A program made the position numbers and the translations under genes. From positions 270,001-302,000 of the forward strand of contig JBDHVY010000001.1 of the NCBI GenBank assembly GCA_039809905.1: a stretch of DNA of 32,000 nt, read 5' to 3'. Positions 6,754 through 27,995 of the stretch are shown one piece after another (position 1 is the stretch's first letter; the number at the start of each line of letters is the position of its first letter). A model generated the notes under the pieces. That model saw nothing but the letters and a program-made list of their open reading frames with translations, had not been told where the DNA came from and did no database searches. This DNA comes from Candidatus Babelota bacterium. GTDB taxonomy: Bacteria > Babelota > Babeliae > Babelales > Vermiphilaceae.

Positions 6754-7500
6754 CTATTCATCGCCAGATGCATTATTATCCATCAATGCAATAAATACAT
6801 CTTCTAAATTTCCCATATTAAAATCTGCTTTTAATTTATCAGGCGTTTCAATTAATTTAATCAATCCACCATCAAGCACACACACACGATCAGAAAGTTG
6901 TTCGGCTTCATCAAGATAATGCGTTGTTAAAATAACGGTTACACCAAGTGCCTTTAAATCCTTAATTTGTTGCCATAATTGACGCCTAATATGAGGATCA
7001 AGACCAACTGTTGGTTCATCCAAAATAACCAGTTGTGGATTATGCATTAATGCTCGCGCAATCATAAAACGCTGTTTATAACCACCAGAAAGAACTGAAG
7101 CCTTTTGATGTAAATACTGAGCCAAATCAAATTGAGTAACCAATTGCTCAAGACGTGTATTGATCTGTTCTTGTGTCATCCCATAATAACTACCAGAAAA
7201 ACGTAAGTTTTGTTCGAGAGTCAGTTCTGGATTTAAATTTGGCCGCTGAGGACAAAAACCAATATGATAGCGATATGTTGCGATATCGGAGTAAATTGAT
7301 GCACCTTCAAATTCAATATCACCTTCTGTTGGCGGATGAAGCGTTGCAATAATTGATGATAATGTCGTTTTCCCCGCACCATTAACACCTAAAAGTCCTA
7401 AAATTTCGCCTTTATAAATATCAAGAGAAACACCTTTGAGCGCTTCTTTTGAGTCATATTTTTTTTTGATATTTTTTATCTTTAATAAAACATCATTCAT
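6754..7500 (-). CDS. ABC transporter ATP-binding protein
   Basis: Walker A GVNGAGKTT, signature LSGGYKQR, Walker B LVILDEPT and H-loop TTHYLDEA. Confidence 0.95.
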   Translation of the reverse strand: MNDVLLKIKNIKKKYDSKEALKGVSLDIYKGEILGLLGVNGAGKTTLSSIIATLHPPTEGDIEFEGASIYSDIATYRYHIGFCPQRPNLNPELTLEQNLRFSGSYYGMTQEQINTRLEQLVTQFDLAQYLHQKASVLSGGYKQRFMIARALMHNPQLVILDEPTVGLDPHIRRQLWQQIKDLKALGVTVILTTHYLDEAEQLSDRVCVLDGGLIKLIETPDKLKADFNMGNLEDVFIALMDNNASGDE

Positions 7501-8675: not shown

Positions 8676-8879
8676 ATGAAAAAAAAATACCATTGCTGTT
8701 TTTGCAGCACAGAAATTATATCTAACACCGTTGATGTAACCGGTCTTATTGTGATCACCAACTTTGATAAAAGTGAGAAAAAACAAGAAGTACAACAACT
8801 ATTTTGCCATATTTATTGTTTAAAAGATAAGCTGCCATTAACCATTGATTTATACGGACTCAATCCAGAGAAAAATTAA
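8676..8879 (+). CDS. small Cys-containing hypothetical protein (possible zinc-ribbon-like)
   Basis: 67 aa with the cysteine pattern CC-x-C ... C-x3-C (HCCFCSTE ... FCHIYCL). Ends 1 nt before the next gene's ATG. Confidence 0.4.
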   Translation: MKKKYHCCFCSTEIISNTVDVTGLIVITNFDKSEKKQEVQQLFCHIYCLKDKLPLTIDLYGLNPEKN

Positions 8880-8880
8880 T

Positions 8881-10029
8881 ATGTCATACAAAAAATCATT
8901 ATCTTGTGCCTTAGCTCTATTAATGACAACCAACAGCCTAGCAATCGAAAAAGAAAATAATCTTGTTTTTCGCAATGGTGTTTTATTCTTAACAGTTGCC
9001 GCTATTGGAGTTATCGCATTCTCACCAAAATTACGATCATGGTTTAGTCAACGGATAAGTAATTTTTTCCATAAATCTACTACCAATAAAGAATCTACTA
9101 CTGATACGAATACAAACATACAATGGGAAAACTTTTCTCTCTCGGGAAATGATTTAATCATCAATGATGATAAAACGTTGGAAGCAAAAAACCTTCCTTG
9201 TATTAAACCTTCTGGAATACTTGAATCAATAAATTTTAATTCTCCCATAGAAACAGTACGTATTGTTTTTCCTATTGCAACCATTGCTATTAATGATGAT
9301 GAAGAGCCTCGCATTATACGAGATAAAGCATTCAAAGATATTATATTTATAGTTGATGACGGTGTGTTAACAGCAACCACATCTGACGGAAAACCGAGAA
9401 AATTTGAATATAAAGGCACACCCTTATGCACTGTATATGCGCGATTAAAAAGTACCACCCTAAAAACTTCTTACGGCTCACGGGTAATAATTCAAAATCA
9501 AGAATTACATAACATAGAATCTTCTGGATCATCTCAAATTAGTGGATCTCTTAATGGCAGCAGCTGCGAACTCCTTCATATGAAATGCGATGGAGCATCC
9601 AAAATAATACTTAAAAATATAATGTCAGATTTGATCAAGTTACATATAAGCGGAAGTTCAGTAATTACCGCCCAGGGTAAAGCAAAAAATCAAACGGTAA
9701 CAATTAAAGGTGCAAGCAAATACCATGGACTAGAGCTTATGTGCAACAATGGTGTTATCAATGCAACCCTTTATGGCTGCTCCGAGGCTTTCCTAGCCGG
9801 CACATCAGCAAACCAAGAAATCAATCTTTCAGGCTGTAGCACGTATCATGGCTATGCATTATCCGGTACAGATGCCACAATTAATCTTTCTGCTTGTTCC
9901 AAAGGTTATGTAAATGTTACCAATATCATTCAAGGTAAGATTTCAGGTGCAAGTCATATTTATTATAAGCAACATCCGAGAACATCAGTGATATGTTCAG
10001 ATGTTTCTAAGTGTCACCGGATAGAATAA
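8881..10029 (+). CDS. secreted protein with DUF2807 / GIN-domain-like C-terminal beta-repeat region
   Basis: ATG 8881 gives a signal peptide (MSYKKSLSCALALLMTTNSLA). The C-terminal half has repeated SG(S/A)S-x-I units (SSGSSQISGS, CDGASKIIL, ISGSSVITAQG, IKGASKYHG, LSGCSTYHG, ISGASHIYYKQHP), recalled as typical of DUF2807. Confidence 0.65.
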   Translation: MSYKKSLSCALALLMTTNSLAIEKENNLVFRNGVLFLTVAAIGVIAFSPKLRSWFSQRISNFFHKSTTNKESTTDTNTNIQWENFSLSGNDLIINDDKTLEAKNLPCIKPSGILESINFNSPIETVRIVFPIATIAINDDEEPRIIRDKAFKDIIFIVDDGVLTATTSDGKPRKFEYKGTPLCTVYARLKSTTLKTSYGSRVIIQNQELHNIESSGSSQISGSLNGSSCELLHMKCDGASKIILKNIMSDLIKLHISGSSVITAQGKAKNQTVTIKGASKYHGLELMCNNGVINATLYGCSEAFLAGTSANQEINLSGCSTYHGYALSGTDATINLSACSKGYVNVTNIIQGKISGASHIYYKQHPRTSVICSDVSKCHRIE

Positions 10030-12365: not shown

Positions 12366-12761
12366 TCAAAAAACTTCAGGATATTTATCTGGATCTGCTC
12401 GGCAATATTTTTCACCAAAACTTCCTACAGCATGTTCTGCTATTGTAACAAATGTTCGTTCAAAAAATCCGCCTCTTTTATCACGTTTTTCTTGTTGGAT
12501 TGCACGCACATTTTCCAAGGATATGTTGTGCAAAGCACAGAGTGCATCGATAACTTCGAAAACATCTGCCAATTCTTCTATCAATTCTTTTGTCTCTTGA
12601 GCAGCACAAACTTCTTCTATTTCTTCTCGTAACTTAATTTTTAGTTGTTCTTCATACTGCACATCATCTAATTGTTTGCTGTGGATAATTGAACCCGTTG
12701 CTCTCATTAACTCTGGAGCTTTATCTCGCCATAACTTATTTTGCAAAAATTTGTGCATCAT
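12366..12761 (-). CDS. MazG-like nucleoside triphosphate pyrophosphohydrolase
   Basis: KLWRDKAPE plus the acidic helix pair EEIEEV ... ELIEELADVFEVIDAL is characteristic of all-alpha NTP-PPase (MazG/YpjD-type) proteins. Confidence 0.75.
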   Translation of the reverse strand: MMHKFLQNKLWRDKAPELMRATGSIIHSKQLDDVQYEEQLKIKLREEIEEVCAAQETKELIEELADVFEVIDALCALHNISLENVRAIQQEKRDKRGGFFERTFVTIAEHAVGSFGEKYCRADPDKYPEVF

Positions 12762-12870: not shown

Positions 12871-13587
12871 ATGAAAATAAAAAACTTACTTTGTTATTCC
12901 ATTTTACCATTGCTGTTGTACATTACATCCATCAAACCTGAAAGTTTTTTTCCAAATAAGTTGGTTAAAACAACATTAGATTCCTCTTGCGTTGAACAAT
13001 TAAAATCTAGATATCTTATTCTTTTTTATGCTCTTGATAACAATCATCTTGTTAATAATACCATTCCTGTTGTGGTTGTTTATTTTCCTGTAATTATTGC
13101 AAAAGCTATTCCTGTAATACAAACATGCCTTACTGCGGCAACAACATTTTTGGGTGTTCATTTTGCTAAGAAAGCTCAACATAAATTACGTGCATCATCG
13201 CTGAATTCTTCTTCATCAAATAATTATAGCAGTTATTATCCTGATCCAAATGATCCCAACAATGACAAAAACAAATCAAATAATAAAGAACATCCTCATG
13301 GTATTTATAAAGATGCAGACTATCACCACAAAAATTCTACAAACAGAAAAAGCCCTTGCCCTGATAATGGACAACGTTGTCTCGATTATTCTATACAAGT
13401 AGGAGAACAACGAATTGCAATAGAGGGAGATCATTTTGTAGTCCTCCGACTTACTCGTCCAGGAGAATATCATGGCTTTAAAGTTTCTTGGAACAAGCTA
13501 GATGATAAATTACAGGCAGCGCTTATAAAAAACGGATTTGTTAGAAAAACAGGCAAAATAATATGCCAAATAACCGAAAAATTTTAA
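12871..13587 (+). CDS. A1: signal peptide + hydrophobic anchor + His-rich C-terminal domain protein (candidate toxin/effector)
   Basis: 238 aa. Signal peptide MKIKNLLCYSILPLLLYITS, hydrophobic aa 64-100, S/N/D/P linker, and a C-terminal domain with KEHPHGIYKDADYHHKNS, NGQRCLDYS, RIAIEG, PGEYHG. Paralog of A2. Confidence 0.7.
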   Translation: MKIKNLLCYSILPLLLYITSIKPESFFPNKLVKTTLDSSCVEQLKSRYLILFYALDNNHLVNNTIPVVVVYFPVIIAKAIPVIQTCLTAATTFLGVHFAKKAQHKLRASSLNSSSSNNYSSYYPDPNDPNNDKNKSNNKEHPHGIYKDADYHHKNSTNRKSPCPDNGQRCLDYSIQVGEQRIAIEGDHFVVLRLTRPGEYHGFKVSWNKLDDKLQAALIKNGFVRKTGKIICQITEKF

Positions 13588-13589
13588 CC

Positions 13590-14225
13590 ATGACTAAATA
13601 TGAAATCACATTTATCATTAATGATAAAACTAAAATAATTATACCACTTAAAGACCCAATGGAGTTTTTAGGACCAATTTACATAGAAAAAATTTTATTA
13701 ATATTCAATGGACATAAAGCACTACTTTCAAAAACCACTATTTATCATGATATGCTGCATTTCTCAGACCTGTTAAAAAAAGCTCTGAACCAAGAACTTT
13801 TTCTCCATTATTCCATCACACTCGATATTGGTTATCATCATAATGAATATCTTTATATAGGCGTAAACAATCCCAAAAATCTCTTTACGGATAACAATGA
13901 CGATGGCTGGAATGGTTATGATTATAATCTTTGGAGTGCAAGAAATAAGCTCACTAGCCTAGATACATGGATATACAATGCATCCGATGGATCAATTATA
14001 CTCGAAGTAACCCCAATTTATCCTTATCTTTTTTCTGAACCAGAAGAAGAACCAAACTACATACCTTATGAAGAATGGATCAAAACATATAAACCATATT
14101 TTATTACCACTCTATCGAGAGAAACAGCAGAACAGTGGATCGAACAAGCTGAACAAATCATAAGAATGGTTGAATATAATGAAAAAAGAATGCAGTATCG
14201 TTCAAAAATAGATGTTGAGAGTTAA
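13590..14225 (+). CDS. B1: cytoplasmic partner protein (candidate immunity/antidote)
   Basis: The track start 13563 overlaps A1. ATG 13590 (MTKYEITF...) aligns with the B2 N-terminus and gives the same 211 aa. It lies 2 nt after the A1 stop. Confidence 0.7.
   Translation: MTKYEITFIINDKTKIIIPLKDPMEFLGPIYIEKILLIFNGHKALLSKTTIYHDMLHFSDLLKKALNQELFLHYSITLDIGYHHNEYLYIGVNNPKNLFTDNNDDGWNGYDYNLWSARNKLTSLDTWIYNASDGSIILEVTPIYPYLFSEPEEEPNYIPYEEWIKTYKPYFITTLSRETAEQWIEQAEQIIRMVEYNEKRMQYRSKIDVES
14036..14225 (+). repeat. 190-bp near-identical block, copy 1 (3' end of B1)
   Basis: 14036-14212 is identical base for base to 15395-15571. The only two differences in the whole block are 14213 T/C and 14219 G/A, both synonymous. 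Confidence 0.9.
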
Positions 14226-14232
14226 AAAAGTT

Positions 14233-14952
14233 ATGAAAATAAAGAATTTACTATGCTCTTTTATTTTCTCTTTCTTTTTCTATGCTCCACATATAAAATC
14301 TGAAGGTTTATTACCTCAAACAGCCGTTAAAAAAGCATTGGAACATTCTTACATTCAACGCTTTTTTCCACTCAAAACAAACCACATTCCTCAACTTAAT
14401 ATTCTTGTTCATAATACCATTCCTATTGTGGTTGTTTATTTTCCCGTAATTGTTGCAAAAGCTTTTCCTGTTATACAATCCTGCCTTACTGCAGCGGCAA
14501 CCTTTTTGGGTATTCATTTTGCTAAGAAAGCTAAAAATAAATCAAAAATGTCATCCATGGATTCTTATTCATCAAATAATTATGATAGTTATTATCCTGA
14601 TCCAAATGATCCTAATGATGATAAAAACAAAACAAATGATAAAGAGCATCCACATGGTATTTATAGAGATGCGCCATATCATCATAAAAACTCTAGCGGA
14701 AGCAAAAGTAAAAGTCCTATGAATGGCCAGCATTGTCTTGATTATTCATTGCCAACAGAAACCAATCAGAGAATAGCTATCGAAGGTAAAAATTTTATTC
14801 TTCTTAAATATACCTCTCCAGGCAATTATCATGGATATGTTATTACATGGAAAGAGCTTGATCAATCAATAAGAAATATATTGGTCAAACACGGTTTTGT
14901 AAAAATTTCTGGAAAAATAATCAAACAAATAATGGAAAAGTCCTCACTATGA
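14233..14952 (+). CDS. A2: paralog of A1 (candidate toxin/effector)
   Basis: ATG 14233 (MKIKNLLC...) matches the A1 N-terminus; the track start 14212 overlaps B1. 239 aa with the same architecture and invariant motifs. Confidence 0.7.
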   Translation: MKIKNLLCSFIFSFFFYAPHIKSEGLLPQTAVKKALEHSYIQRFFPLKTNHIPQLNILVHNTIPIVVVYFPVIVAKAFPVIQSCLTAAATFLGIHFAKKAKNKSKMSSMDSYSSNNYDSYYPDPNDPNDDKNKTNDKEHPHGIYRDAPYHHKNSSGSKSKSPMNGQHCLDYSLPTETNQRIAIEGKNFILLKYTSPGNYHGYVITWKELDQSIRNILVKHGFVKISGKIIKQIMEKSSL

Positions 14953-15584
14953 ATAATACTCATTACATAACTTTTAATATCGATAAAAACTCAAGAATTA
15001 TTATTCCCTTACAAGACCCGATTGAATGGCTCGGCGCCATTTATGAAGAAAACATTTTGTTTTATCATAAAAAACAAAAATTATTTTTATCAAAGCAAAC
15101 TATTTATCATGACATGTTAAATTTAGCCGAGCTTCTCAATAAAGCCTTAAATAATGAATTATTTTTGGATAAGTCAATCAATCAGGATATAGGTTATCTA
15201 GTACATGAATACCACATTGATGAAAATAAAGTCGCTTTATGTGATTTTGATTCTGGCATTCGCAGTTGGGTAGGATATAAATATAAATTATGGGAAGCTA
15301 CTAATAAAAACCTATGTTTTATGTCATGGATATATAACTCACCAGATGGATCAATTATTTTTGAAATAACACCTTTTTATCCCTACATGTATTGTGAACC
15401 AGAAGAAGAACCAAACTACATACCTTATGAAGAATGGATCAAAACATATAAACCATATTTTATTACCACTCTATCGAGAGAAACAGCAGAACAGTGGATC
15501 GAACAAGCTGAACAAATCATAAGAATGGTTGAATATAATGAAAAAAGAATGCAGTATCGTTCAAAAATAGACGTTGAAAGTTAA
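14949..15584 (+). CDS. B2: paralog of B1 (candidate immunity/antidote)
   Basis: 211 aa. ATGA start/stop overlap with A2. The last 63 aa are identical to B1. Confidence 0.7.
   Translation: MNNTHYITFNIDKNSRIIIPLQDPIEWLGAIYEENILFYHKKQKLFLSKQTIYHDMLNLAELLNKALNNELFLDKSINQDIGYLVHEYHIDENKVALCDFDSGIRSWVGYKYKLWEATNKNLCFMSWIYNSPDGSIIFEITPFYPYMYCEPEEEPNYIPYEEWIKTYKPYFITTLSRETAEQWIEQAEQIIRMVEYNEKRMQYRSKIDVES
15395..15584 (+). repeat. 190-bp near-identical block, copy 2 (3' end of B2)
   Basis: See copy 1. The offset between copies is 1359 bp. Confidence 0.9.
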
Positions 15585-15623
15585 GAATGAACGTTAGAAT
15601 AGACGTAAATAATGGGTATTATT

Positions 15624-26539: not shown

Positions 26540-26690
26540 GCTCTATGCCTCTACAAATATTTTTTAATAAAATTGTCAATGATTATACCAGTAGATTATG
26601 TTATAATCCAATTTCCTTATAAGCCTATCTTCAGTAAAAATGAACTTCTTCAAGTTAATGAAAAAAGTACGAATATTACAAGGATTTATC

Positions 26691-27995
26691 ATGAATAGAA
26701 ACTATGTATTTTTCACAACGAGCATATTTATTGTCAGTACAATTTTTGGAATGGATTTGCCATATCAAATAGAACGTTTTTCATATAAAGTACCATCTTT
26801 ACACGATACGATTATCGAAGCTGTTACCACTGGTTATGGAAAAACTGAAATCGAATGCAAAAAAAACAGTGCCCAACTTATTACGGCTCTACAGAAAAAG
26901 CATGAAAACTGCAGCATTTTATTAGGATATGATACGATAGAAAAATGTAAAAATAGATACATCGGTTTATACGGTTGGCGTGCTTCTAATCTCAGCTCAA
27001 CAAACTCTCATCCTTTGAATTTGAGTCAATTATTGCCTTATGATCGAGACAAAGATCTTTATATAATAAACGATGGCAAAGAAATCTACCTTTTTGATAT
27101 GAAAGAACATAAAAAAGAAAGAATAATTGCTCAACCTAAAAATTCCATTCAAACGTGTACTACTGCTCGCCAAGGCCAAATCATTATTCTTGCTACGTGG
27201 TCCGATAGCCCAATTAGTTTATGGAACACAAAAACCAATAAGCTCATCTATTCTCAACCAAATGTTTCTGTCTTAGATTTAGCATCAGACGATAATGTTT
27301 TCGCATCTTCAGATGTCAATGAAAATGTTAAAATATGGGATATTTCATCAGGAAAATGCTTAAACACCTATGTCCAAGATTATGATCCTATGGGAACCTT
27401 TGACTCTCTTGCTATAAACAATGGAATATTGTATGCAGGAGAAACAACACAAATGTCTTTTTTTGAACAAAGAAAATCCAAAATTGTAGTGTTTGATTCT
27501 AGGCTAGATAATGCAGCACAAACCTGGATGGCACATAAAAAAGCCATATCTTGCTTTATTTTTTCTAAAAAAAATTCATTTTTAATGTATTCTGGATCCA
27601 AGGATCACTCGATTAAACAATGGGACATAAGAAATACAAGTGTTCATACAAAAAAAATGAATTTGAAGCATGCTACTGGTTATAAAAGTCATGAAAACTT
27701 GAACGTTCACAATATCTACGAAAGCAGCAATGGAAAAAAAGTATTTGCTACTGATATGAATCGATTATTGATATGGGATATATCGCAACAGGAACCACAA
27801 TTAACAACAAAAATTTATTTACACTCTCATATTATAAAAAACTCCATGTATATGAATAAAAACGAAACAAAATTATACATAGGCACAAATGAAAACTCAG
27901 AAAAGTATTTTTTAAAAACTATTAGCCCATCTAGTTCGTTTGAGAATCTTATTGAAATGTATAATCAAGAAGACAATGTTTCTAGAGTAGAATAA
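26691..27995 (+). CDS. WD40-repeat protein with N-terminal hydrophobic anchor
   Basis: ATG 26691 is preceded by AAGGA at 6 nt. WD-type repeat ends are NVKIWDISSGK, SIKQWDIRN, ISLWNTKTN and LLIWDISQQ. Confidence 0.8.
   Translation: MNRNYVFFTTSIFIVSTIFGMDLPYQIERFSYKVPSLHDTIIEAVTTGYGKTEIECKKNSAQLITALQKKHENCSILLGYDTIEKCKNRYIGLYGWRASNLSSTNSHPLNLSQLLPYDRDKDLYIINDGKEIYLFDMKEHKKERIIAQPKNSIQTCTTARQGQIIILATWSDSPISLWNTKTNKLIYSQPNVSVLDLASDDNVFASSDVNENVKIWDISSGKCLNTYVQDYDPMGTFDSLAINNGILYAGETTQMSFFEQRKSKIVVFDSRLDNAAQTWMAHKKAISCFIFSKKNSFLMYSGSKDHSIKQWDIRNTSVHTKKMNLKHATGYKSHENLNVHNIYESSNGKKVFATDMNRLLIWDISQQEPQLTTKIYLHSHIIKNSMYMNKNETKLYIGTNENSEKYFLKTISPSSSFENLIEMYNQEDNVSRVE

Follow-up and report, generated by a model that had tools for sequence, protein, structure and literature searches.

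The C-terminal (CT) toxin head of Cupriavidus taiwanensis CdiA lies at residues 3391-3469 of that protein, and its toxin class carries the CDD name cd20695 (PMC9111745). The same class includes rCRCT-3a, a toxin of Rickettsia; the Rickettsia antidotes could not be modelled on C. taiwanensis CdiI, lone antidotes are frequent, and rCRCA-3 was likened to a helical bundle by Phyre2 (PMC9111745; bioRxiv 10.1101/2023.02.26.530123). Here we analyse a locus of Candidatus Babelota bacterium, in a stretch of 32,000 nucleotides (contig JBDHVY010000001.1, positions 270,001 to 302,000; hereafter the window, numbered from its first letter). ORF calling in the window finds four open reading frames (ORFs) on the forward strand that form two A-B units: A1, B1, A2 and B2. 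We estimate at about three in four the probability that this locus consists of two toxin-immunity cassettes of a polymorphic toxin system in Babeliales (Dependentiae/TM6), in which A would be the toxin and B its immunity protein. The concept of polymorphic toxins that carry a pretoxin HINT domain reportedly goes back to Zhang, Iyer, Aravind and co-workers. Related loci compared with the window are labelled L001-L034, and homologous proteins P0002 and so on.

Toxin head and scaffold of the A proteins

Neither A1 nor A2 has a significant match to a Pfam, NCBIfam, PADLOC or PHROGs family. A search of 5.8 billion proteins retrieved only 22 close relatives of A, which served as the basis of an A-family alignment and profile. 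In an hmmsearch of this profile against PDB chains, profile positions 255-323 matched residues 1-73 of 5T87_E, a 'CdiA toxin' (E=2.7e-15, 59.6 bits). The AlphaFold2 (AF2) prediction of A1 is confident only in the core at residues 161-238 (predicted local distance difference test, pLDDT, 78-97). In Foldseek, this model matched 5T87_G with a template-modelling (TM) score of 0.81, a root-mean-square deviation (rmsd) of 1.5 Å and 35% identity; across chains E-H the values were TM 0.77-0.81, rmsd 1.5-1.9 Å and 35-36% identity. No other PDB fold was found near the A1 core, the next Foldseek PDB matches having E>0.1. Judged by profile and predicted fold, the C-terminal domain of A belongs to the CdiA-CT toxin class of C. 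taiwanensis (5T87/cd20695). An earlier note on this DNA had stated that the domain could not be assigned to a named family, and had taken the system for a candidate undescribed one. The profile and fold matches overturn the first statement, the Foldseek check that the note had proposed for A1 having led to a solved CdiA toxin; the second survives for B, whose family is unnamed, and falls for A, which is of a known toxin class and has PT-HINT ancestry.

The best conserved part of the A family is a motif of the form HPHGIY-x4-YHHKN, located just upstream of the crystallised 5T87 fragment in a region that AF2 modelled with low confidence. Within it, H141, P142, H143, G144, Y146, Y151, H152, N155 and K160 are invariant in the alignment of A homologues, and the motifs that the earlier note had listed for A are all invariant or nearly so across the 22 homologues. 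A profile of the toxin head, searched against 1.84 billion representatives, gave 1038 cluster representatives at E<=1e-3; among the best 150 of the 1038, the majority of matches begin within the first 17 profile positions, so that they cover the His/Tyr motif. The motif occurs only with 5T87-class heads and is absent from the Ntox21 and Cytotoxic heads found among three long paralogues (below); hence it is part of the toxin head and not of the scaffold. Its residues may be the catalytic ones. With a net charge of +5/+6, the head is basic; it has many invariant His, Tyr, Lys and Arg residues, and every family-invariant residue of it is present in A1 and A2. Nuclease toxins are usually basic and their inhibitors acidic, as the head and B are, and from these features we infer that the head is a nuclease, most likely an RNase. 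Users of the toxin-head profile should be cautious about one match, P0088 (3015 aa, 16 matched stretches, E=5e-35 summed): it is a eukaryote-like PKD/REJ repeat protein, which we rejected as a repeat-driven false positive.

Upstream of the head, the majority of A relatives, of about 330 aa, carry a pretoxin HINT domain, PF07591 PT-HINT (in P0002, E=2.5e-13 and 50.9 bits, with a cut-off of 27.7), and the HINT part of the A-family profile matches the bacterial intein-like domain 2LWY in the PDB (E=4e-16). In the alignment, the full layout reads signal peptide, HINT domain (from 'EGF..T.VKT' to 'VHN'), immediately a hydrophobic segment, basic flank, S/N/D/P-rich linker and C-terminal domain. The signal-peptide call rests on the pattern of n-, h- and c-regions and on conservation across all full-length homologues. 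A1 and A2 retain the first ~20-30 and the last ~10-20 HINT residues, and ~90 residues between them are missing; A1 has thus kept an N-terminal 'ESFFPNKLVKT' and a C-terminal 'LVNN' around its lost central residues. Neither protein contains a complete HINT domain ending in His-Asn: there is no Pfam match, and A1 ends in LVNN, A2 in LVHN. On the evidence of this alignment, A1 and A2 are in-frame HINT-deleted derivatives of a longer ancestor. P0003, a metagenome sequence, likewise has no HINT domain, and the limits of its deletion resemble those in A1 and A2. DUF4692/RHEX matched A1 in its hydrophobic segment and linker, but this match (E=0.012) did not reach the cut-off and was treated as noise.

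Established intein/HINT chemistry involves an N-terminal Cys nucleophile and a C-terminal cleavage by Asn cyclisation. Among the relatives, Gly occupies the +1 position of HINT in 49 of 54 cases, and the His-Asn end is kept. With Gly in place of Cys, only C-terminal cleavage by Asn cyclisation would be possible. The hydrophobic segment that follows reaches a Kyte-Doolittle maximum of 2.3 (19-residue window), with 0-1 K/R among the 15 preceding residues and 4-5 among the 15 that follow (A1: 0 and 4), and the AF2 model of A1 has a helix at 72-110. Because the segment is strongly hydrophobic and its C-terminal flank is rich in K/R, A is predicted to be bitopic, with its head in the cytoplasm of the producer. 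Hydropathy and charge pattern thereby favour, as a prediction, the bitopic A proposed earlier, whose head would face the cytoplasm beside a cytoplasmic B.

Interchangeable heads and the linked B family

We analysed the architecture of the best 142 of the 1038 head-profile matches. The head stands at the very C-terminus in ~80% of them and a HINT domain is present in 65; in 49, the His-Asn of HINT is followed, after a median of 3 residues, by a hydrophobic segment, and the linker to the head has a median of 35 residues. Head swapping is seen in relatives of the window genes rather than within the window, namely in three Babeliales proteins of 621, 617 and 633 aa (L032:1379-3244, L033:1194-3047 and L034:2103-4004, respectively). 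Their common part, ~480-540 N-terminal residues with 45-65% identity, is a scaffold of signal peptide, HINT, hydrophobic segment (only marginally hydrophobic in these long paralogues) and ~300-residue coiled coil; after a 'GSPQNNNND'-type linker, equivalent to the A1 linker, they diverge fully. L032 ends in a Cytotoxic, colicin-E3-like head (27.2 bits, cut-off 22) and its next gene is DUF6980; L033 has an Ntox21 head (E=2.8e-27) followed by a gene for a 170-aa protein; L034 has a 5T87-class head followed by B and then by a DUF6980 fragment. Downstream of the Ntox21 toxin/immunity pair of L033, and directly upstream of a B gene, an uncalled ORF of 113 aa (L033:3641-3979) is a complete orphan 5T87-class head (hidden Markov model E=1e-44) that has no signal peptide, HINT or membrane segment. 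In L004, A is followed by two B genes and then by a CdiI of Enterobacter cloacae type (L004:8199-8669, 156 aa; PF18228 CdiI_N, E=1.8e-25; match to 4NTQ_B, E=1.5e-11). We rejected this gene as the 'true' immunity gene for A, since the E. cloacae CdiI that it matches is specific for a different (rRNase) toxin; to judge from its sequence, this is an orphan immunity gene, directed at a toxin type absent from that locus. Interchangeable heads, a constant scaffold, orphan cassettes and mixed immunity arrays together indicate a polymorphic toxin system.

We surveyed the linkage of B to A in the window and 30 related loci, in four of which the contig ends just past A. Each of the 27 A genes with DNA downstream is immediately followed by B, which in most cases overlaps it by 4 nt. 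Copies of B without A lie in L001, L031 and L032; islands of other toxins and immunity genes, among them DUF6980 and an E. cloacae-type CdiI, also harbour orphan B, as in L032. The orphan B of L031 (4001-4645, on a 1.52-Mb contig) lies at a locus with Sod, DivIC, S41 peptidase, DUF2608 and NUDIX, where L002 and L003 have A then B; on this comparison, L031 has lost the toxin and kept the immunity gene. Over 23 pairs, identity in the toxin core and identity in B residues 1-140 are correlated (Mantel r=0.76, p=5e-4), a figure inflated by shared phylogeny. The ranking of relatives by sequence is more telling for the A-B pairing: L001, L006, L007, L003 and L002, in this order, supply the nearest relatives both of A1 and of B1, and the closest relative of A2 and of B2 is L010 for both. 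Because of its strict linkage to A, this matching ranking and its co-variation with the toxin core, B is most likely the cognate immunity protein, and likely a new immunity family, with specificity that would reside in the first ~145 residues of B and in the toxin core. The earlier note had taken A and B for a toxin-immunity pair of polymorphic-toxin type; homology to a CdiA toxin, a B gene that always comes next and co-varying head and B agree with it at the level of sequence, and the neighbourhoods that it had proposed to survey did not reveal A commonly without B.

B itself has no Pfam, NCBIfam, PADLOC or PHROGs family, and its profile finds nothing among PDB sequences even at E<=10. A B-profile search recovered 96 clusters, none annotated, and all the named ones are from Babeliales ('Candidatus Babeliales bacterium'). 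The two top B-profile scores (430 and 341 bits) belong to P0224 (401 aa) and P0225 (433 aa), which are about twice as long as B and appear to be tandem B-B fusions. A further composite, a stop-to-stop ORF of 294 aa at L023:5438-6319, carries a B domain (5-195) and then an in-frame toxin-head fragment (209-290), and would be either a fusion or a decayed orphan cassette. Aligned by hhalign to the PF18228 protein of L004, B gave a probability of 0.1%. The protein is acidic (net -11) and, as the earlier note had read it, without a signal peptide; it has no membrane segment either (Kyte-Doolittle maximum 0.9).

The AF2 model of B (pLDDT 92.4, predicted TM score 0.87) predicts four strands and a helix, a helical insert, four more strands and a long C-terminal helix. 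No internal repeat was found by hhalign of the N- against the C-terminal half. A description of B as 'two beta4-alpha halves / Whirly-like' drew only on predicted secondary structure and a weak MRP1/2 match (prob 0.25), and we do not claim it. The best PDB match of the model is 5FFP, a CdiI of Burkholderia dolosa (prob 0.96, TM 0.41/0.51 over 180 columns), at E=0.03, 12% identity and rmsd 6 Å; this likeness is a suggestive but weak sign of a relation to CdiI. Among the 50 best Foldseek PDB matches of the B model there is no CdiI chain of 5T87. The matches of the model in BFVD are uninformative: several small Bacillus phage proteins, all uncharacterised (prob 0.96-0.99, TM ~0.5), and a single protein of moumouvirus. 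The claim that B fits no named family holds at the level of sequence, where nothing matches; the model bears a weak structural resemblance to a CdiI (TM 0.51).

The two units and their surroundings

ORF calls place the four genes, in two A-B units, exactly where the earlier note had put them (Table 1), and its spacings can be read off the sequence: the A1/B1 junction is TAA-cc-ATG (2-nt gap), the B1/A2 junction TAA-aaaagtt-ATG (7-nt gap) and the A2/B2 junction ctATGA (4-nt overlap). B1 has an alternative upstream ATG at 13563 and A2 an alternative ATG at 14212. A1 and A2 are 57% identical (140/244, E=1e-97), B1 and B2 67% (137/206, E=3e-95), the last 62 residues of B being identical, and the DNA of the two units is 69% identical overall. 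The toxin core (A1 ~161-238) is 52% identical between units and B residues 1-140 are 49% identical, in line with the estimate, made by eye, that the A head and the first ~145 aa of B share about half their residues.

We compared the proportion of synonymous differences (pS) between the units, part by part. It is saturated in the toxin core (0.75) and in B residues 1-145 (0.74-0.84) and high in the signal peptide and HINT remnant (0.56-0.77); it is 0.21 in the hydrophobic segment, 0.30 in the linker and 0.10 in B residues 146-211. The low pS of the conserved blocks (0.10-0.30) points to recent gene conversion rather than to stronger constraint, and the tract at the 3' end of B holds an identical run of 177 nt (14036-14212 = 15395-15571). 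By sequence comparison the units are old alleles, each nearer to pairs in other genomes than to its tandem partner, and the putative conversion tracts flank the specificity cassette (head and N-terminal part of B), as expected of recombination handles. Measured against the orthologous L001 pair, the toxin head has a ratio of nonsynonymous to synonymous change (dN/dS) of 0.16-0.23, and B one of 0.06-0.28; these low values indicate that both genes are under purifying selection, and nothing in the same simple test (0.06-0.28) points to positive selection. Conserved flanks around a diverged middle had been interpreted as co-diversification after a tandem duplication. This interpretation gives way to one of old alleles modified by gene conversion.

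Table 1. Features of the two A-B units, with positions in the window
Feature	Positions	Strand	Residues	Description
A1	12871-13587	+	238 aa	putative HINT-deleted polymorphic toxin, from ORF, homologues, 5T87 match and AF2 model
A1, N-terminus	12871-12936	+	1-22	signal-peptide-like, MKIK and hydrophobic core; predicted
A1, HINT remnant	12937-13056	+	23-62	remnant of pretoxin HINT domain, from alignment with ~330-aa homologues
A1, hydrophobic segment	13057-13164	+	63-98	predicted membrane segment NTIPVVVVYFPVIIAKAIPVIQTCLTAATTFLGVHF, then K/R-rich flank
A1, linker	13165-13281	+	99-137	basic flank and low-complexity S/N/D/P linker YYPDPNDPNNDKNK; pLDDT 40-44
A1, His/Tyr motif	13282-13350	+	138-160	invariant motif KEHPHGIYKDADYHHKNS, N-terminal part of toxin head
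A1, toxin core	13351-13584	+	161-238	structured core, homologous to C. taiwanensis CdiA-CT; pLDDT 78-97
B1	13590-14225	+	211 aa	acidic, predicted cytoplasmic; candidate cognate immunity protein of A1, unnamed family
A2	14233-14952	+	239 aa	second HINT-deleted toxin (putative), other allelic type
A2, hydrophobic segment	14413-14520	+	61-96	
A2, toxin head	14638-14949	+	from about 136	
B2	14949-15584	+	211 aa	candidate cognate immunity protein of A2, overlaps A2 stop (ATGA)
Gene-conversion tract 1	13040-13318	+		hydrophobic segment and linker; ~84-87% identical to 14396-14674
Gene-conversion tract 2	14017-14230	+		3' end of B; 94% identical to 15376-15590

The G+C content of the window is ~33%, and the genes flanking the module are ordinary chromosomal ones: a MazG-like pyrophosphohydrolase, an FAD oxidoreductase, DUF2177, TspO, a photolyase-related protein, signal peptidase I, Ogt, DoxX and others. 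The right flank of the window is syntenic with the related 1.05-Mb contig L001. Besides B, the window genes scanned include no other candidate immunity gene, and scans of the locus for promoters and terminators gave chance-level results only. The same MazG-like (PRA-PH) gene adjoins the A-B module in two genomes on opposite sides, at 12366-12761 (-) in the window and at 6936-7331 (-) in L003/L005; transcribed divergently from A1 in the window, it converges on B in L005. Such a placement hints at rearrangement of the region, or at an insertion of the module on different sides of the gene. A possible surface protein of 394 aa is encoded a few kb upstream of the module, at 8845-10029 (+); its N-terminus resembles a signal anchor, and it has a DUF2807 domain, 'putative auto-transporter adhesin head GIN' (E=2.4e-20). 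At 26640-27995 (+), the window encodes a 451-aa WD40 beta-propeller protein of eukaryote-like type, and faint ankyrin-repeat matches are present in L001 and L034; eukaryote-like repeat proteins are common among host-associated bacteria. Babeliales relatives are obligate intracellular parasites of protists and amoebae, with genomes of ~1-1.5 Mb, and one of the related loci belongs to a 'candidate division TM6' genome.

Mode of action, alternatives and known systems

If the locus is a polymorphic toxin system, we lean towards a use against other bacteria, which might be rivals sharing a host cell. A would enter the Sec pathway; in the ancestral form, the HINT domain would fold in the periplasm and cut at His-Asn, freeing a piece made of hydrophobic segment, linker and toxin, which HINT-less A1 and A2 would resemble, already processed, once their signal peptide is removed. 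The hydrophobic segment would perhaps aid passage through membranes toward other cells. B would be made in the cytoplasm by translational coupling, where it would bind and neutralise the cognate head, and cassettes would swap sequence by homologous recombination via the two shared tracts, as is usual for such loci. Several points weigh against this reading. The head of A1 and A2 is predicted to stay in the cytoplasm of the producer, which is awkward for an exported weapon, and no secretion-system gene lies near the module among the window genes scanned, the neighbours being housekeeping genes. A1 and A2 are without the HINT domain that most homologues keep; other homologues have lost N-terminal parts in different ways, and these varied losses could mean decay. 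By sequence and model, B has no relation to the CdiI that shares the 5T87 crystal with the toxin; its 5FFP match is weak, and shared phylogeny confounds the Mantel correlation. The literature searched yielded no report of an activity for the 5T87 class of toxins, and toxicity, binding and enzymatic activity of A and B are predictions from sequence and models.

The predicted position of the head also fits the tethered effector of the earlier note and a self-directed addiction or suicide role. A would then be a permanently membrane-bound, cytoplasm-facing toxin, held in check by B, that serves the producer for addiction, in the way of a toxin-antitoxin module, or for suicide upon abortive infection or stress; the periplasmic HINT domain of the ancestral form would be a trigger or maturation device. 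Hydropathy and positive-inside charges do put the head beside B, the hydrophobic segment comes immediately behind HINT in 49 relatives, and P0020 and P0100 consist of only an N-terminal membrane segment and the toxin. N-terminal parts have been lost repeatedly while head and B stay under purifying selection, a secretion system is absent among the nearby genes, and the obligate intracellular, parasitic lifestyle of the lineage limits contact with competitors. We nevertheless regard such a role as improbable. Hallmarks of inter-cellular systems are present, in the form of swappable heads, orphan head/immunity cassettes and orphan immunity arrays; signal peptide and HINT are conserved in most homologues; PADLOC defence models give nothing; and the marginal hydrophobic segment of some long paralogues might be translocated. 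There is a still smaller chance that A1 and A2 are decaying, inactive leftovers of HINT toxins, so that B alone matters as an orphan immunity protein against other Babeliales toxins. The in-frame loss of ~90 HINT residues and the LVNN of A1 in place of LVHN would agree with this, as would P0018 of L010, which is closest to A2 and has no signal peptide, HINT or hydrophobic segment, the frameshifted or truncated A genes of L025, L026 and L030, and the orphan B left in L031 where A was lost. Both A ORFs of the window are intact, however, and keep all invariant head residues as well as the signal peptide and hydrophobic segment; the dN/dS of the toxin head is 0.11-0.23, A and B are still tightly coupled, and the similar deletion boundaries of P0003 suggest that a HINT-less variant is maintained.

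Another conceivable role of B is that of a chaperone or adaptor which serves A's hydrophobic segment, in the manner of the Eag chaperones of type VI effectors that bear membrane segments, with the immunity factor encoded elsewhere. The segment would need shielding if A were exported post-translationally, the two homogenised regions are the C-terminal third of B and the hydrophobic/linker block of A, and a recognised CdiI-type gene stands behind the B genes in L004. Yet B accompanies heads that have no hydrophobic segment (the orphan head of L033; L010/P0018), and its variable two-thirds track the toxin core and not that segment. The CdiI of L004 is of the E. cloacae type, for a different toxin, the scan of the window brought up no second immunity candidate, and no Eag-type chaperone is among the 50 best Foldseek PDB matches of B; we give this explanation next to no credence. 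A more far-reaching proposal would see in the succession signal peptide-HINT(Gly1...His-Asn)-hydrophobic segment-linker-toxin an undescribed, self-contained deployment device that works without a dedicated secretion system, and in B a new, Dependentiae-only immunity fold family. In one form, periplasmic HINT autocleavage would let the hydrophobic segment carry the toxin across a target membrane, of a rival bacterium or of a host organelle. In another, A would be a bitopic 'sensor-effector' in which an envelope signal frees the toxin, facing the producer's cytoplasm, from B. The HINT-less A1 and A2 would be constitutively 'pre-processed' versions of either, and we hold the whole proposal to be doubtful.

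If the locus is a polymorphic toxin system with two cassettes, as we prefer to read it, then its toxin head, the HINT domain, the general logic and the Rickettsia parallel are already known; new are the B family, the compact layout of N-terminal HINT and hydrophobic segment with its HINT-less derivatives, and the presence in Dependentiae. In the literature searched we found no paper linking polymorphic toxin systems with Dependentiae/Babeliales, to which the reach of these systems would be extended. That several cassettes are kept in small genomes would imply, as in Rickettsia, that bacterial conflict or addiction matters inside host cells. B would be a concrete candidate immunity family for a structurally solved toxin class, and the compact layout raises the question of how, or whether, such toxins leave the cell. 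The locus also illustrates that a pattern of conserved flanks around a diverged core can stem from gene conversion and not from selection.

Among known systems, a type II toxin-antitoxin module combines a small soluble toxin of the cytoplasm with a labile antitoxin, usually encoded upstream and DNA-binding, by which the operon is repressed. Here the toxin gene comes first, A has a signal peptide and membrane segment, and B is acidic, with no recognised DNA-binding domain. The CdiI of B. dolosa AU0158 (5FFP), on which we found no publication in the literature searched, is like B a small cytoplasmic protein beside a CDI-type toxin (CDI, contact-dependent growth inhibition); B is ~55 aa longer, and the profile search shows no sequence similarity between them. 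With HINT polymorphic toxins the A family shares a constant scaffold, swappable heads, an adjacent immunity gene, orphan cassettes, recombination and a HINT C-terminal His-Asn. It departs from the usual ones in having HINT at the mature N-terminus with Gly at +1, and in the hydrophobic segment (plus a ~300-aa coiled coil in long forms) that parts HINT from toxin instead of letting them abut; moreover, no secretion-system trafficking domain is recognised in A, and the window copies are HINT-less.

The CdiA-CT/CdiI pair of C. taiwanensis LMG 19424 (5T87) has a homologous toxin core, and in both systems a C-terminal head is followed by a protective gene. A has only 238 aa, and its export would use a Sec signal peptide with HINT and hydrophobic segment; the crystallised 5T87 chain begins after the His/Tyr motif that is invariant in the A family. 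No CdiB, TPS domain, FHA repeats or VENN motif was found: A1 and A2 have no Pfam domain, their homologues only HINT, and no such transporter is present among the window genes scanned. Strictly speaking, the locus is thus no CDI system. The Rickettsia rCRCT-3a/rCRCA-3 modules (Verhoeve et al. 2022) differ in belonging to Alphaproteobacteria and not Dependentiae, in being linked to Rhs or hemagglutinin-type toxins rather than to a signal peptide-HINT-hydrophobic scaffold, and in their antidote, rCRCA-3, whose reported helical likeness contrasts with the mixed beta/alpha model of B. They are likewise small or degraded modules in an obligate intracellular bacterium, without CdiB.

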